From positions 120,032,001 through 120,096,000 of the forward strand of contig OZ024743.1 in assembly GCA_964016885.1 (NCBI GenBank): a DNA stretch of 64,000 bases, given 5' to 3'. The notes under the pieces are model-generated. The model was not told where the DNA came from. It ran no database searches and saw only the letters and a program-made list of their open reading frames with translations. Both the position numbers and the translations under genes were made by a program. Position 1 is the first letter of the stretch. The number at the start of each line of letters is the position of its first letter. This document shows positions 9,203-62,030 of the stretch, piece after piece. This DNA is from Eledone cirrhosa (lineage: Eukaryota).

Positions 9203-9257
<55 letters not shown>

Positions 9258-9259
<2 letters not shown>

Positions 9260-10148
9260 TTAAATATCGATTGAGAATAAGAAGAAAGCAAGAACGGGGG
9301 GTCCTCATCAGTTGTCTACTGGTGGTCTCGGTAATCTCAACGTTTTAATGACAATATATCTACCCCCAGAGCGTTCAATAACTGGGTAAGTTATTGGGAA
9401 AACTGAGGAGGGAGAGAAGGAAAATAGAAGGGAGAAGGGAAAAAGGGAAGAAAAGAGAAAACAGCGAAAAAAAACAAACCGAGAAATGTGCGAGCAACTT
9501 AAGGTAAGGAAATCCAAGACCTCGGCGGTAACAGAACTTAAGTTCGAGAGCGTGTGGGTGAACAAAAAGACACGACTGACCCCGGCGAGTGTAAGTGAGA
9601 AAAGGACTGCTATCCTATTCTCCATATATTTTATCATGTTTCGCTGTGACCCGTCTTCTCTCTCCCTCTAACTACCTATTTCGTTACTATCTACTCTTCC
9701 CCCTCTTTCTTCCTCTCCCTTTCTCCCTCTCACTTCCCCTCACCCTCTCTCTGCCAGCCATCTCATTGTTTCCCTCGCCTGACCTTCTAGCAGTCCTTTT
9801 CTCACTTACACTCGCTGGGGTCATTCATATCTTTTGGTTCGCCCACACGCTCTCGAACTTAAGTTCTGTTACCGCTGAGGTCTTGGATTTTCTTACCTTC
9901 AGTTGCTGCACATTTCTCGGTTTGCTGTTTTATTCGCTATTTTCTCTTTTCTTCCTTTTTTCCCTTTTCCCTTCTATTTTCCTTCCCTCCTTCCTCCGTT
10001 TTCCCAATAACTTACCCAGTTATTGAACGCTCTGGGGGTAGATATATTGTCTTTAAAGCGTTGAAATATCCGAGACCCCCAGTAGACAACTGATAAGGAC
10101 CCCCCCCCCGTTCTTGCTTTCTTCTTATTCTCATTCCATTTTTAAGCC
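9258..10148. mobile_element. Fold-back element with ~355-bp inverted arms in (TA)n, probably derived from a Penelope-like pLTR
   Basis: 9258-9611 is the reverse complement of ~9789-10148; each arm has a hammerhead-like motif; atcctattctccatatat follows both arms. Confidence 0.8.
10005..10105 (+). ncRNA. Pseudoknot-order hammerhead-like motif (copy with G8A)
   Basis: GATAT-A-TTGTC (10041-51), GAA-ATATC (10063-70), GACAA-CTGATAA (10085-96); covaries with 20887-20942. Confidence 0.5.
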
Positions 10149-10227
10149 TAACTTAACTACCAACTACACAGCCATCCTATTCTCCATATATGTTATATAT
10201 ATACATATATATATATATATACATATT

Positions 10228-20533: not shown

Positions 20534-20606
20534 TATACATGCATACTTATATTTATATATATATATATATGAAAAATCGCGTGCTGCGTTGTTGCAAATG
20601 GGATAC

Positions 20607-20980
20607 ATATAAAATAAAATTAGAACAAGAAGACAGGACTGTCCATCATCAGTGATCTTCCAGCCATCATTGGTATTTATTCGCATTAAAGACCATATAC
20701 CTCAGGCTGATGCGAGCAATAACTAAAAAAAGTTATTGGGTCAGGTAGAATTGGGTGTCGAAAGCGAGGCATGTAAACAAACAGAGATGGTAATGGCAAC
20801 GGAAAGAGAGGAAGAAGAGAAACAAGTCTTCTCTCAATTCTACCTGTCCCAATAACTTTTTTTAGTTATTGCTCGCACCAGCCTGAGGTATATGGTCTTT
20901 AATGCGAAGAAATACCAATGATGGCTGGAAGATCACTGATGACGGACAGTCCTGTCTTCTTGTTCTAATTTTATTCATAT
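20607..20980. mobile_element. Fold-back element with ~145-bp inverted arms near (TA)n
   Basis: 20607-20753 is the reverse complement of 20835-20980. Confidence 0.85.
20850..20954 (+). ncRNA. Pseudoknot-order hammerhead-like motif (core intact)
   Basis: GGTAT-A-TGGTC (20887-97), GAA-ATACC (20909-16), GATCA-CTGATGA (20931-42). Confidence 0.55.
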
Positions 20981-20984
20981 ACAT

Positions 20985-21020
<36 letters not shown>

Positions 21021-21879: not shown

Positions 21880-22230
21880 ATAATAATAAATATGAAGACT
21901 AAAATCCAAAGAGGACTCGATAAGGATAAATAATAGAATTTGGAAAATAAATAAAGAACGAAAACACGGTAAAACGAAAAAAAAAAATTGAAAATAAGAA
22001 CAAACAATACACACAGAACTCGAAGGTCTTCAGCCGTCAGAATGGACTTTCTGGCAGTTTCGGACCCTACCAACGGTACTGCTGGTCCACCTAGTACCAT
22101 AGTGTCTGACACAAGACAAGAGAGAACAAAAACTTAAAGTAATTAAGCCATAACAGGGACACTTATATATATATATATATATATATATAGTTTTGCGAGG
22201 TTTTTGATATGAAATCGTGTGTCGAAACAA

Positions 22231-22709
22231 ATATTGTTATACTTGGGGAGGGTCATATTTGTGTAATATTGCCAGAATTAATAACAGAACACAGTCACTG
22301 TTTGGTTGGTTTTCGCTTTTCGCTTCTGTGTCTTTTATATCGGTAATCTAATTTATTCGGTCCTCAATGTTGCCATTGACTGACCAACGGTCAAAAATAA
22401 TACAGATACAATATAGACACAAACACATATATATAGTTTATCAAAGTTCTTTCGTTGCACATCTGCAACATCGTCAGTGGTGCAGATGTGCAACGAAAGA
22501 ACTTTGATAAACTATATATATGTGTTTGTGTCTGTATTGTATCTGTATTATTTTTGACCGTTGGTCAGTCAATGGCAACATTGAGGACGGAATAAATTAG
22601 ATTACCGATATAAAAGACACAGAAGCGAAAAGCGAAAACCAACCAAACAGTGACTGTGTTCTGTTATTAATTCTGGCAATATTACACAAGTATGACCCTC
22701 CCCAAGTAT

Positions 22710-28808: not shown

Positions 28809-29100
28809 TGAGAAATAAAATAGATTAAGGGGTCGGGCGGGAAGGAATTTGAAAAAATGTCTTTAGATAAAAATAACAGGTCCATTCATGTTGACATCTC
28901 TAGTTGCTGATCATGGGTTAATGACAAATTTGCTCTTATTTGTAAAGTTATAGTTGTTACATTTGTTACTGTCCCTTGTGCACTAAAGCAAGTTGTATCG
29001 ACCTTAAAGCACCGAAACAACGGTCGACTGATGAGATGGGCCTATTGTCTGTATTCGTTCATTTTCCTGTCTTCGTTTATATTATATATATGTGTGTGCG

Positions 29101-33525: not shown

Positions 33526-33716
33526 AAAATCTATATTATAAAACAGAAGCTGTTTCTCCATGTATCTATCCGTTACACATATATGTAGAGAGATAGAAAA
33601 ACGGGAGTGTAAAAAAAATGTTTGTTAAGAAAGAGAGTGAGAGAGGGGGGGAGAGAGAACGAGAGAGGGAGAGAGCGAGAGAGACAAAGAGAAAGCGTGT
33701 GTGTGTGTGTGTGTGC
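33526..33716 (+). repeat. ~190-bp direct repeat, left copy (Helitron-like TCTATATTATAAA start)
   Basis: Colinear with 35891-36090. Confidence 0.85.
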
Positions 33717-35895
33717 AAGGGCGTAGTAACGCTGATCAGGAAAGACGAGAACAAGGGGCGCGAAATTAACAACTTCAGCCCCTTAACTCTGCTCAACACA
33801 GAGTTAAAGATTTTGGCCAAGGTGCTAGCGACGAGGTTGGCGCTTGTCGTCGAGAACCTGGTAGGGAAAGCGCAAACGTGTGCAATCCCGACCAGGTCCA
33901 TACACGACAACCTCCACCTCATGCGATACATCATAGAGAGGGTGGGTAGTAAACCCGGCTCCGGTGGGGCTCTGATCAACTTGGATCAGTCTAAGGCATT
34001 CGATAGGGTCGACCATCGATACTTGGAAGCGCTTCTCAAGGCGGCCGGTTTCGGTCCCGTGTTCAGAGGATGGATCGAGGCGATGCACACCAGCATCTGC
34101 TCAAGGGTCAAGGTGAACGGCTACCTGTCGGAGCCGTTCGCAATCACGCGTTCCATTCGACAGGGGTGCCCTCTCTCTCCTCCATTCTGTATGTATTGAC
34201 TCTAGAGCCACTACTGCGGAAATTGGAGCTGTTGCAGGGCATCCCTCTAGAACCGGGACTGAGCAAAGCGGCGTCGGCTTATGCCGACGACGTGACGGTA
34301 ATGGTGTCGAGCACCTCGGAAATCGGAGTGATCGGCAACTTACTGAAAGAATACGAAACGCTGACGGGAGCAAAACTAAACCCGGACAAGTCTGTCGGTT
34401 TGCAACTCGGTATGTGGAGAGGCAAACTGATGACGTCCGACAACGTCGTTGGACGTTAGACGGACGGACCGGTGAAATTGCTCGGGGTCTGGTTCGGTCC
34501 AGACCTCCAGGTGGAGAAAAACTGGAACGAGGTCACGGCCAAGGTGTTTGCACTCACCCAGAAGTGGGCAGAGTGCAAACTGACCTTGAAAGGTCGAGCG
34601 GAGGTGGCGAACACTTTCATAGCGTCCGTCATCTACTACCGCTTGACTGTCGTGCCTTGTCCCCGTGAACACCTCGCCAAGATGGAACGCATGCTCTTCC
34701 AGTTTCTGTGGAAAAAACAGGCTCTGCTGGTGAGGAGATCCGTCTGCTGTCAGCACCCTTCCAACGGAGGGCTGGGAATGCCGTGGCTGATGATGCGCAA
34801 CATGCGCTGAGGCTGCGGCATCTCCAGGTATTCCTCACCGACCCCCAACCGGTGTGGGCACCGTTTGTGAGACAGGCTTTCCCACAGCTCGTATCGCTGA
34901 CGGAGCTGCAGTCCTGGGTCAAGATCGAAAACGATGGGCGCCTGGCACATTGAATACGCTCAGGCGATCACAGTCCTCTGGCAAGCGGGCGCAGCAATCA
35001 GTGGAGACTCCACTTCGACATTCTATAGAGGGATTGTACGTTACAAGGGCGACGACGTGCTCGGAGAGACTCTGGGCGTCGAAGACGATGAGCTCACCTG
35101 TCTGTTTGGTAGGACTTTCCGCCCGGGACCTATGGACAACTTCCAGAGGGCCCTTGCCTGGCAGTGCTACCGAGGAGCTCTACCGGTTCGTGACAAGATC
35201 TACAGGCACGGACGCCCCGGCAGGGATCCTTCCAAGAGGACGTGTCCAAGATGCGCACAGGACATTGAAACAGTCCTGCACGCAATTGTACACTGCCCGG
35301 GCGTAACCGACCTGTGGAACTATGCAGAACAACTGCTGTCGCGTATGGGACAAATCCAGTTGACTGCTGAGTCCATAGTAAGGATCAAACCGCCAGCCTC
35401 TTTCAAAAACGAAAGAGAGGCGGTTTTCCTCTGTACGGTGGCTATGGTGAAAGAAGTTATATGGTGGACGAGGTTGAGAGGGCTGAGGACAGATGCCTTT
35501 CTCTCCGGACAACAATTGATTCCCTTCTTTAAGTATCACTTTAGAAGGAGAATCAGGGTGGAGAGAGAGGCACTGCACCCCAGTAAATTTACTGAAAGGT
35601 GGGTGAATGAAGCGAAAATGGCCCAAGTGATTGGGCCTTCTCTGTTTATAAGCCTGTAGGTTGAAGAAGAGAGCAAAAGGAAGAAAGGATCACTTGCACA
35701 ACACGCTCCTGGAGTTGAGGGTTGTTCTATCGACGGCGTATTAAACAACCCATTTGTGGCGCCTCCCCCCTATTGGAGATTTCGATTGTTGTAATTGTTT
35801 GTTTTTATATTTTTTACACGACTGTATGTAAAATCCCCGGCATGTCTTTGTATTGTCCCCTTTTCTTGTGCGCCCTTGTGGCTAATAAAGAAATA
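33717..35895 (+). mobile_element. L1/Tx1-clade LINE, 5'-truncated ORF2 (RT + zf-RVT) and 3'UTR
   Basis: NFSPLTLLNTELKILAKVLATRL; LDQSKAFDRVDH; RQGCPLS; YADD; GGLG; CPRC..ETVLHAIVHC; AATAAA at the 3' end; three frameshifts and one stop. Confidence 0.95.
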
Positions 35896-58002: not shown

Positions 58003-61000
58003 TAGTCAACGCGATCAGTCGCATATTTTGGCGTGGGAGACTATTTATTAAATTTAAGATGAATACTATCTCCGACAGTAATGCCACAACTACAGCCAGG
58101 TTGAATAACTGGTTATTCTTCTAACTATCCCTTCTGAAGACACCTTTTATTCGAATTCGTAGAGATATCCGACTAAATACATAATTCATTTTACAAGGAT
58201 TTGCTACAAACAGCATGGCTGAACACAACATCAACAAAAAATTAAGGAAGTATCGAAGACAAATAACAAAGAAGGTAATCAAACTTTATTCAGTTGTAGC
58301 TACAGAAGAAACCGAAATTATAAATCGCATTTCTCTTGGACTTAATGATTATTTATTTAATTGTTATAAAATGGCAAAAAACAATCCCTCCATTGGCTAT
58401 ATGAATAGAATGAAGCTACACTGGGACGAAATGCACCCAGAGTTAAATTATTTCACAGCGAAACAATTACGCCAACAAGCGACGTTTGTTGAACGTAAAA
58501 ATAAGATAAATATTATTAATTGTAAGTCCCCCACAACAAACATGGAATCAACACGTGCTTCAGATCGCCATGCTACTAGACTTCCTAGCAGCCAGGTCGA
58601 ACAGCGCCTTGAAACAACTATGCCTGTAAGAAACTTAACACCACCTGTACCATCTAAGTCTACCTCGAATGCTGGGGAAAACACTATCGATAATAATAAT
58701 AATCGAAGAAATAAGAATAATAATCGAATAAATGTTACACCACGTATACCATCCGAGTCTACCTCGACTGTTGTGGAAAATACTATCGATAATGATAATC
58801 AAAAGTATAAACAATTGAAAATTTCCCTCAACGAAATCTTCCAGAGAGAAATTAACTCATGTATAAATATCTCTCTGGCTGAACGTGTTAAAATGATAAT
58901 GGTGAATAAAAAACCAAATAATTGTTTCTACTTTAGGCACAAGGCCAGCAAATTACCAGTACATTACTGGTACTTTATTTTATCGACCCCGTAAGGATGA
59001 AAGGCAAAGTTAACCTGGGCGGGATTTGAGGTTAACTTTGCCTTTCATCCTTACGGGGTCGATAAAATAAAGTACCAGTAATGCACTGGGTAATTTGCTG
59101 GCCTTGTGCCTAAAGTAGAAACAATTATTTGGTGTTTTTTTTATTCACCATTGTCAAAACAAATAATGAAATATTACGTGTTATTGACGAAATAGGGGAT
59201 GAATATTTACGACGGATAAAAACCCCAACATTTTAGCAAATCAACGCCTGTTTATATGCCTTAGCAATGACAGTGAAGCATTATCTCGGTGATAGCAGAG
59301 ATATTAACAAGAACAAAACACCACCAAAAATACCATCATATATAACTAAAATAGAAAATAAGAGTGCTGACCTACGAAAAAACATAGGACATGTGACAAT
59401 GCTCCTTACATGCAAACAAACACAAAAAAAAACCTCACTCCTCACCAACAAAGAGTGAAAAATAAAATAGAGACGATGTTTGGTATCAGTAGAACCAGAA
59501 CTCTCTAATATAAGCTGATCACCCTCAAACAAGAATTGAGAGCTGTTAGCGAAAAACGCCGATACCTGAAGAAGGTAGAAGAAAGAAAAATGCTTAATAA
59601 AAGATTCAGACGAAACCAAACATCAGTCTATAGAGATATGAAGGGCAAAATAATAAGTGTCACTGAGGCCCCAATCCCAGAAAGACATAGATTCCTTTTG
59701 GAGAAAAATATGGGGTGAAAAGAAGAATTTCAACCAAGATGCAGTGTGGCTAAAAGAATCCGAAAAAACTATTGCTCCTACACTACAACAAAAACATACG
59801 AAATAAGTGAAGGTACCCTTGAGACTGTGATAGGAAAACTCCAAGATAAGAAAACACCAGGAAGAGACATGATTGTCGGCTACTGGTACAAAAAAACTAA
59901 TATTCTATCGGAGGTATCTTACTGACCTCTACCAACAAGTTCTTAAGGGAGATACACTTATACCAGAATGGTTGACATTAGCACAAACGTTACTGGTCCC
60001 CAAGAACAAAGACACCCACTTGGCAAAAAACTACCGACCCATTGCATGCCAGGACCTGATGTATAAGATGTATACAGCCTGCCTGAACCTATTCCTCCAA
60101 GATCACTGTGAAAATAACATCATCATCACAGATGAACAAGCAGCTGGAAAGAAAAGGTTTTGGGGATGTGCTGAACAACTTCTAATCACAAAACTGCGAT
60201 GTCGGAGGTGCGACAACTTAGGAGGAATGATGATAGAGGCCCTCCAACTTGCTAAAGTCCCAGACATTATTGTCATAGCCTTAGAGAGGCTGTCTTCTTC
60301 TTGGGCTACTATCCTAAGGTTAAAAACAGAGAGGGAGGACTCTATTTTCACTGATAAAATAAAATATTGCAGGGGTATATTTCAGGGGGACAGTCTCTCT
60401 GTGATATTGTTCATCTTGTCATTAAACCCCTTGTCCTTTCTGCTCAAGAAATGTGAGGGATACATCATTGGCTCACAGGAGGACAGAAATACGAACCTAA
60501 CCCATAACTTAATTGTGGACGATCTGAAACTCTATGCCAAGAACATGGATGGGATGAAGAAAAATCTAGACCTGGTTACAACGTTCTCAAAGGATATAGG
60601 AATGGAGTTTGGCCAAGATAAATGCTCATACATGACTGTAAAGCGGGGAAAAACAACAACCCAATCTAGCAGCATTGTCATCAATGGTCTAACTGTTTCA
60701 CCGATACCTGATGAGGACTGCTACAGATACCTGGGGATAGATGAGAACATATCCTATAATGGTATCTGTAATAAAGAACGTGTAACCAGGGAATACTACA
60801 CCCGATTAAGAAAGATCTGGTCATCGGAACTCTCTGCGCAAAACAAAACAGTGGCTCACAATGTGTTTGCTGTGCCTGTCCTAACACCAACCTTTGGAAT
60901 ACTCAATTGGACGATAGACGAAATCCGAGCAGTTGATGTTGGAACTCGAAAAATACTGAACAACACCGGAAACTTCCACATCAACAGTGACATAGACCGC

Positions 61001-62030
61001 CTTTACTTGAAACGTAAGCAGGGAGGCAGAGGCCTAACATCAGTCCAGACAACATTTGAATGTCGCATCATATCTCTCCGACAACATATACGAACCTCGA
61101 AGCGTAGGAGCCCGCTTCTCGAGCAAGTCTATCTGCATGAAACAGATAAGAACATGAGAGTTGGGAAAGAACTCTTTGAGAGATATTCCCTGTGTGATAA
61201 TCAAAAACTCACACCCAGGGATGTCGCTCAGCAGTATCGCAGTGAATCCATGGATGAAAAACTGCATGCCTATCAGCAAAAAATCATGCATGGATATGTT
61301 GCCAGGAAGCTCCAGAGTGAGAGTAATATAGATAAGGAAACTAGTCTATCTTGGACCAACAATCGCTATATTGGCTCCCACTTTGAAGGATACGCTTTGC
61401 AATCCAAGAACAGGAGATTAGCACGAAATACCTGATTCACAAAAGAGATAGGGATGCAGGCAACACACCTAGATGTGATAACAAGTGCAGACTCTGCAGA
61501 ACTAACATCGAGGATATCACCCATGTCATCACACAATATAATATCAAAGATTAGTGAAAAGGAGAATATTTATGCAGAACTGATGAGAAATATGCAGATA
61601 CTCCACTCTGATTACACCTTCAGATTTATGCCTGTGATTATTGGGGCACTGGGATATGTTAGTAACTGCCTCAATACAAATCATGTGAAGCTAGGCTTCA
61701 CAGGAACAGAAAGAACACAACTAGTTAGGAAACTACAAGTACAATCCATTAATGGAACAGTAAAAATATGTAAAACATTCCAAAGATTTTGCATCTAATA
61801 ACTGCATATACACATGTACAGATACAAAGCATATACACATGCACACATGCAACTCAAAACATCCACATCCACACATACCATAGCATCCATATCTACACAT
61901 GAATGCATACATACATATCTACCTAGTTGATGTTGTGTAAATTCCAATGAGAGAGTCTTGTGTCTATGTTAGAAACCGACTCTCTCTCTCTCTATTGGTA
62001 AAACTTTGTGAAATTATAAAACCAGAAGAA
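58003..62030 (+). mobile_element. Near-full-length R4/Dong-clade LINE inserted in (CATA)n, pseudogenised
   Basis: N-terminal CY..GYMNRMKLHW..QLRQQ; NYRPIAC; GIFQGDSLS; VDDLKLYA; YRYLGI; DRLYLKRKQGGRGL; CRLC..EDITH; PVIIGALG; (CATA)n on both sides. Confidence 0.92.
58894..59156. repeat. SINE fold-back: inverted SINE 3' halves plus inverted flank
   Basis: 58894-59016 is the reverse complement of 59029-59156. Confidence 0.9.

Follow-up and report, generated by a model that had tools for sequence, protein, structure and literature searches.

The motif at 20844-20949 (+ strand) of the 64,000-nt stretch of Eledone cirrhosa DNA analysed here, hereafter the window, is quite probably a self-cleaving hammerhead in type-SGC order, with a stem II rebuilt as a four-way junction, placed close to the 3' end of a Penelope-like element, itself non-coding and likely a passenger of Naiad elements. 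Read from the sequence, it appears to be the ribozyme that Naiads were reported to lack. Its strand order, core letters, six helices, covariation, and the anatomy of its element are direct observations, and the original prediction is supported in that a hammerhead core, its strands in a non-circular and pseudoknotted order, lies within (TA)n-targeting retroelements.

Strand order and helices of the motif

Eckert et al. (2023; PMC10085705, available in part) divide the hammerhead into three blocks, S, G, and C. In our motif, which belongs to a family that we call E2, the cleavage block, the GAAA block, and CUGAUGA follow one another in the order S-G-C within 20887-20942 (+). Block S (20887-20897) consists of the stem III strand GGUAU (20887-20891), the predicted cleavage nucleotide A20892, and the stem I strand UGGUC (20893-20897). 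The first of these strands pairs at 5/5 positions with AUACC (20912-20916), which follows GAA (20909-20911) in block G, and the second, also at 5/5 positions, with GAUCA (20931-20935), which precedes CUGAUGA (20936-20942) in block C. C3 and G8 are both present in this core, as the C3-G8 tertiary pair demands. The segments named in the original prediction (stems I and III, A20892, GAA, CUGAUGA, a UCGCA/UGCGA helix, and a CAAUAACU/AGUUAUUG hairpin) are each found where it had placed them, and its statement that no ordinary stem II can be drawn holds, the strand 3' of CUGAUGA and the strand 5' of GAAA forming 0/4 pairs.

The position of stem II is occupied by a more elaborate arrangement, in which one upstream strand supplies partners to both sides of the core. 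The helix after CUGAUGA, Pa, is formed by CUGUCC (20844-20849) and GGACAG (20944-20949), with 6/6 pairs and a pair probability of 0.99 in the nested ensemble; the helix before GAAA, Pc, is formed by UCGCA (20873-20877), the detached 5' strand of what would correspond to stem II, and UGCGA (20903-20907), with 5/5 pairs and in a pseudoknot; between their upstream strands stands Pb (20850-20871), a hairpin of 8 bp with a U6 loop. Together, Pa, Pb, and Pc make up a four-way junction, and the whole predicted ribozyme reads Pa5-Pb-Pc5-NC5-block S-Pc3-block G-NC3-block C-Pa3. The junction of E2 is imperfect: C20943, between CUGAUGA and Pa within 20931-20949, and A20908, between Pc and GAA within 20903-20916, are unpaired, leaving one spare base on each side of the core, and a C-A opposition is present as well. 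In the families E1, F7, F9, and F10, Pa begins directly after A9 and Pc stops directly before G12.

Stem III is extended through a 3-nt bulge and a tandem GA into a 6-bp helix (20878-20883 with 20923-20928), which, like Pa, had been overlooked in the original prediction. Within 20878-20886, CCAGCC belongs to this helix and the following UGA is the non-bulged strand of the predicted K-turn; the other strand (20917-20928) carries the K-turn-like bulge, GA, U, and then GGCUGG. We take this bulge and tandem GA to match the K-turn consensus. ViennaRNA recovers the nested subset of helices (Pa, Pb, the extension, and stem III) with probabilities of 0.85-1.0 and a z of -2.4; Pc and stem I are not scored by it because both cross nested helices.

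A strict descriptor, defined as the exact core plus 5/5 pairs in stem I and in stem III, has three matches in the 64-kb window (at +20892, +28997, and -22077) against none in each of 100 shuffles; the last two represent further families of the same order, which the original prediction had missed. They are a copy of family F4 (28958-29072, +, site 28997), devoid of the Pb hairpin, and a copy of family F3 (21995-22121, -, site 22077). Rfam returned no hammerhead family among the best 150 of 332 matches in the window, nor among the 11 matches on 20560-20990; its miRNA matches in the window reflect microsatellites and the fold-back, and general repeat detection is likewise dominated by microsatellites.

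Carrier elements and their probable link to Naiads

The E2 locus is a head-to-head pair of 5'-truncated copies. The right arm (20835-20980, +) contains the motif, ends at (TA)n, and has no tail; the inverted left arm (20569-20828, -) bears the only tail, of 32 nt (20571-20602), and has its motif site at 20696 with UAAA in place of GAAA. The second fold-back element, at 9.3-10.1 kb, consists of an E1 element (9606-10196, +; unit of ~590 nt with a 29-nt terminal direct repeat), with its site at A10046 and a core decayed to CUGAUAA, and of an inverted arm (9255-9605, -) where GAGA replaces GAAA. These three core changes are those claimed in the original prediction, as are the identical spacing and the compensatory pairs of the 9.3-10.1 kb element; that the two fold-backs are otherwise dissimilar is borne out by BLAST, which gives no alignment at E<1e-4. 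Despite this, E1 and E2 have in common a GAACTTAAGTTC palindrome (window 9853-9865; E2 loci such as L023) and a CGCTGTGAC motif just 3' of the upstream tail copy. The original prediction had made stem III complementarity in the E1 family a test of its own reading: in the majority of 42 family sequences, core and stem III are intact, so the damage in the 9.3-10.1 kb arms is copy-level decay.

When the whole E2 fold-back is folded as one RNA, all six helices have a probability of 0 and one long duplex forms instead; since such a transcript would bury the motif in the duplex, the copy at 20.6-21.0 kb is probably silent. The window holds a further long, near-perfect fold-back adjoining (TA)n (22290-22640), with no SGC match, as well as a decayed non-LTR reverse transcriptase frame with a long C-terminal part (59873-61801, +; RVT_1, E=2.5e-12) and broken LINE-like frames with RVT_1 and zf-RVT matches (33597-35656, +). 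The reverse transcriptase frames at 59873-61432 and 33597-34196 were considered as partners of the motif and rejected, as they are not joined to it.

In the surroundings of E2 at 28 other loci, (TA)n comes next in 24/28 (background 17%), the 3' tail is present in 14/28, a direct copy of the tail lies upstream in 15/28 (seven of them at 521-557 nt), and an inverted copy is found in 4/28. E2 carries no ORF and has a unit of ~550 nt. According to Craig et al. (2021; PMC8557442, available in part), Naiads target (TA)n, form partial tandems, come with an inverted 5'-truncated copy, and have a 30-40 bp tail at one end; E2 has all four of these traits. An ORF with an N-terminal GIY-YIG, CxC, and a DKA-type reverse transcriptase was found nowhere within 1.5 kb of the E2, E1, F3, and F4 copies, and no E2 copy joined to a Naiad ORF was found. 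The link between E2 and Naiad rests on shared architecture and anatomy, and E2 is likely a non-autonomous passenger and not Naiad itself.

Several candidate coding partners were discarded. The 502-aa frame beside locus L011 is a simple repeat, and fifty loci chosen for GIY-YIG matches or long frames (L161-L210) are mostly Penelope elements with a C-terminal nuclease, in which the SGC motifs are separate insertions and do not lie at ORF ends; among these loci, L192-L210 show long Penelope-type frames of up to 1096 aa with a C-terminal GIY-YIG. A first look at the genome gave 10,596 GIY-YIG candidates. An exact 21-letter pattern from the Naiad_Ovul motif had 0 matches in the genome.

A degenerate DKA pattern had 6 matches in the genome (control 1), which are decayed Naiad-like remnants; a profile detected no N-terminal endonuclease in them. 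Their shared 3' end defines family F11 (605 candidates), which is joined to a DKA-type reverse transcriptase remnant in three loci (L288, L292, and L298) and is the only family to which such remnants are joined. F11 (L292:6200-6460, L293-L322) is in SGC order, with a GUC site, a 7-bp stem I, and a local hairpin before GAAA that replaces Pc. Its core reads UUGAUAA: U3 and A8 occur together in 28/31 copies, C3/G8 in 0/31. Covariation to U3-A8 is a natural variant of the hammerhead core (Cervera and de la Pena, PMC4209133, available in part), and we regard its presence in F11 as the best sign of selection on a hammerhead core; the literature searched gave no paper on C3U/G8A by that wording.

In the mechanism that we propose, Pc would serve as a stem II whose 5' strand is detached from CUGAUGA and would stack under G12/A13, Pa would tether A9 to the upstream strand, the K-turn on stem III would bend the linker back to stem I, and the RNA would be cut 3' of A20892. 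Cutting in the two copies of a partial tandem could trim read-through transcripts to a unit-length RNA of ~550 nt, which the Naiad reverse transcriptase and GIY-YIG nuclease may then insert at (TA)n.

Abundance, covariation, and alternative readings

The genome carrying the window measures 3.0 Gb, and a first look at it for five families gave 2194, 2190, 726, 324, and 998 candidates. In 800 kb of evenly placed stretches, strict matches numbered 6 for SGC (0.2 shuffled), 1 for CSG, 0 for GCS, and 32 for the canonical-order type I (0.6 shuffled). Type I hammerhead-like motifs are indeed plentiful (window ~8039, -; L121-L160; L211-L250), several of them with a palindromic stem III. Family profiles found 11 copies in the same 800 kb (0 shuffled), 10 of them with the motif, which corresponds to ~20,000-70,000 copies genome-wide; one profile match devoid of the core (L250) was excluded from this estimate.

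Covariation was assessed by comparing own with swapped partners, a test other than R-scape, in ten lineages represented by one real copy each. Own partners pair better for stem I (p=1e-4), stem III (p=5e-5), Pc (p=1.5e-4), the helix beyond stem III (p=1e-4), and Pa (p=0.022); one has to keep in mind that stems I and III are favoured by construction, because the ten representatives were hand-picked from descriptor matches, and that Pa, Pc, and the extension lie outside the descriptor. In two sets of 5 deep lineages, the own score was reached by 1 to 5 of 120 permutations, the members of the set containing E2 being 43-64% alike. An automated helix search gave registers for F3, F4, F5, and F8 that differ from our by-eye drawing. 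Pa and Pc occur in nested arrangement in 36/85 distinct matches, many of which are near-identical family copies; 200 shuffles gave 17 on average and at most 28. A helix that would link stems I and II at their distal ends scored 4.75 with own and 4.24 with swapped partners (p=0.027), on a strand already engaged in the helix beyond stem III. U16.1-A15.1 is present in 10/10 lineages and the cleavage base is never G, both being demanded by the descriptor.

The fold might also be derived from a hammerhead but no longer catalytic in these families, and be kept as a structured 3' element recognised by the Naiad protein or by a K-turn-binding host protein. We hold this to be unlikely, although several results lean that way: a contiguous stem II does not covary across the ten lineages (own 1.6/4 pairs, swapped 1.7, p=0.93), the E2 junction is imperfect, its loop is K-turn-like, the 5' ends of truncated copies show no peak that would be a footprint of the cut site (1/36 within -3..+4), and Penelope-element hammerheads are poor cleavers in vitro according to the available part of PMC4209133. 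What speaks for retained catalysis is that the catalytic letters persist between lineages that are 35-55% alike and, judged by eye, from one animal phylum to another, and that the U3-A8 swap preserves the core tertiary pair.

The pace of decay was also compared between the core and neighbouring positions. In the young families the core decays no more slowly (E2, p=0.27; E1, p=0.57), and only in the old ones is its decay the slower (F3, p=0.011; F4, p=2e-4; F11, p=0.006), in figures confounded by subfamily structure and query bias. At 90% likeness, contigs of three sequencing runs from one sample reach on 20863-20947 ~100 times the depth that they have on the flanks, which is consistent with a motif kept while the flanks of subfamilies diverge.

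An obligate dimer form, one of the options in the original prediction, finds no support. A wider version, in which cleavage takes place only in dimers or multimers, through a strand exchange between tandem copies like that of minimal type I Penelope hammerheads, seems to us quite improbable: partial tandems are common (the 15/28 E2 loci), dimers are known among Penelope-element hammerheads (PMC4209133, available in part), and stem I is near-palindromic in F4 and F6, but every helix closes within a single 106-nt E2 copy, stem III has 5 bp plus its extension and no weak palindromic loop, and the canonical order would take three units. A box C/D-type guide RNA or K-turn scaffold resembling a hammerhead by chance is barely credible, since the box C likeness of CUGAUGA, a CUGA at 20883-20886, and a single Rfam C/D family match (E=1.5, far below its cut-off) stand against a reversed order with CUGA 5' of the C-like box, so that the motif departs from a snoRNA with box C at its 5' end and box D at its 3' end, both conserved, against the loss of CUGA in E1, F3, F4, F9, and F10, and against stems I and III that covary exactly around the cleavage base and GAAA.

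Published Naiad 3' ends and known hammerheads

The available part of PMC8557442 reports no canonical hammerhead in Naiads, gives no fold, and flags eight half-cores, among them Naiad_Ovul (HHR_half_core). We read by eye the 3' ends in its File S5, at every CTGATGA place and at some places of three other core spellings in 54 records, a reading that is not a census. The Pa-Pb-Pc-S-G-C layout can be seen in nine records (Naiad_Ovul and the preceding record, three from Acropora, Naiad_Plae and the preceding record, and one each in parts 9 and 19). One record in part 16 shows SGC with a local hairpin instead of Pc, and four in parts 14-15, from nematodes by their position, show type CSG with an ordinary stem II, a type known before from two metagenomic sequences. 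The layout was not seen by eye in Naiad_Omin and Naiad_Dcar, both incomplete.

We lean, if only slightly, towards a broader proposal, in which Naiads across animal phyla would carry active reversed-order hammerheads in several wirings: type CSG in nematodes, an SGC form bearing a local hairpin, and, as a seventh permutation, one where block C is interrupted between A9 and stem II and a four-way junction closes it. A drawing of this split form can be obtained from a CSG ring when Pa and Pb are placed between A9 and stem II and the ring is opened at the Pa loop. If true, non-circularly permuted hammerheads would rank with the commonest ribozymes in animal genomes, moving from unassigned metatranscriptome RNAs to animal chromosomes in tens of thousands of copies, and the hammerhead core would tolerate a break deemed impossible in the six-permutation scheme. 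Ribozyme processing would then be general to Penelope-like elements, of which Naiads are the one large clade thought to be without a ribozyme, and it would be explained why descriptor searches found only half-cores there.

The original prediction had suggested an undescribed topology. Its strand order (A-C-B) is already known as type SGC (PMC10085705); as far as our searches reach, what is new is the junction at stem II and the fact that the motif occurs in animal retroelements. In the literature searched, outside which most subscription papers lie, we found neither the junction form nor, for Naiads, any permuted hammerhead described, and no type SGC beyond PMC10085705; nor did the literature searched contain a paper combining a K-turn with a non-circular hammerhead. 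The 2026 retrozyme preprint (10.64898/2026.07.22.740005) uses, in its available part, type I descriptors only.

Compared with Naiad as described in the available part of PMC8557442, E2 is alike in its (TA)n target, partial tandems, inverted 5'-truncated copy, one-sided tail, and, by eye, RNA layout; Naiad has an ORF, whereas E2, with its ~550-nt unit, has none. With the minimal type I hammerheads of Penelope elements and non-LTR retrozymes (PMC4209133; 10.64898/2026.07.22.740005; both available in part), our families share the terminal-repeat position in Penelope-like elements, the non-autonomous derivatives, and the U3-A8 variant; those hammerheads differ in their circularly permuted C-G-S order, their ordinary stem II, and a weak stem III that needs dimers.

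Type SGC is one of the closest relatives in design. The available part of PMC10085705 describes it from metatranscriptomes only, with none in genomes of known organisms, reports cleavage in vitro at the predicted site at 0.007-0.19 per min, and gives stems I, II, and III, together with the I-II helix, as required, cleavage of SGC-3 depending on an intact stem II. As in HRIMA-1 and its variants, E2 has the blocks in S-G-C order, the CUGANGA/GAAA/NUH core letters, covarying stems I and III flanking the cleavage base, and a short stretch linking stem I with the strand that precedes GAAA. In type SGC, stem II runs on without a break from CUGANGA and block C is taken to be indivisible, whereas E2 has no stem II built from the strand after A9 and the strand before G12: the strand before GAAA has its Pc partner upstream of block S, and Pa serves as the tether of CUGAUGA. 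The I-II helix is not clearly present in our motif. From its sequence, the E2 motif would work like a type-SGC hammerhead while departing from it at stem II, and is best filed as a variant of type SGC.
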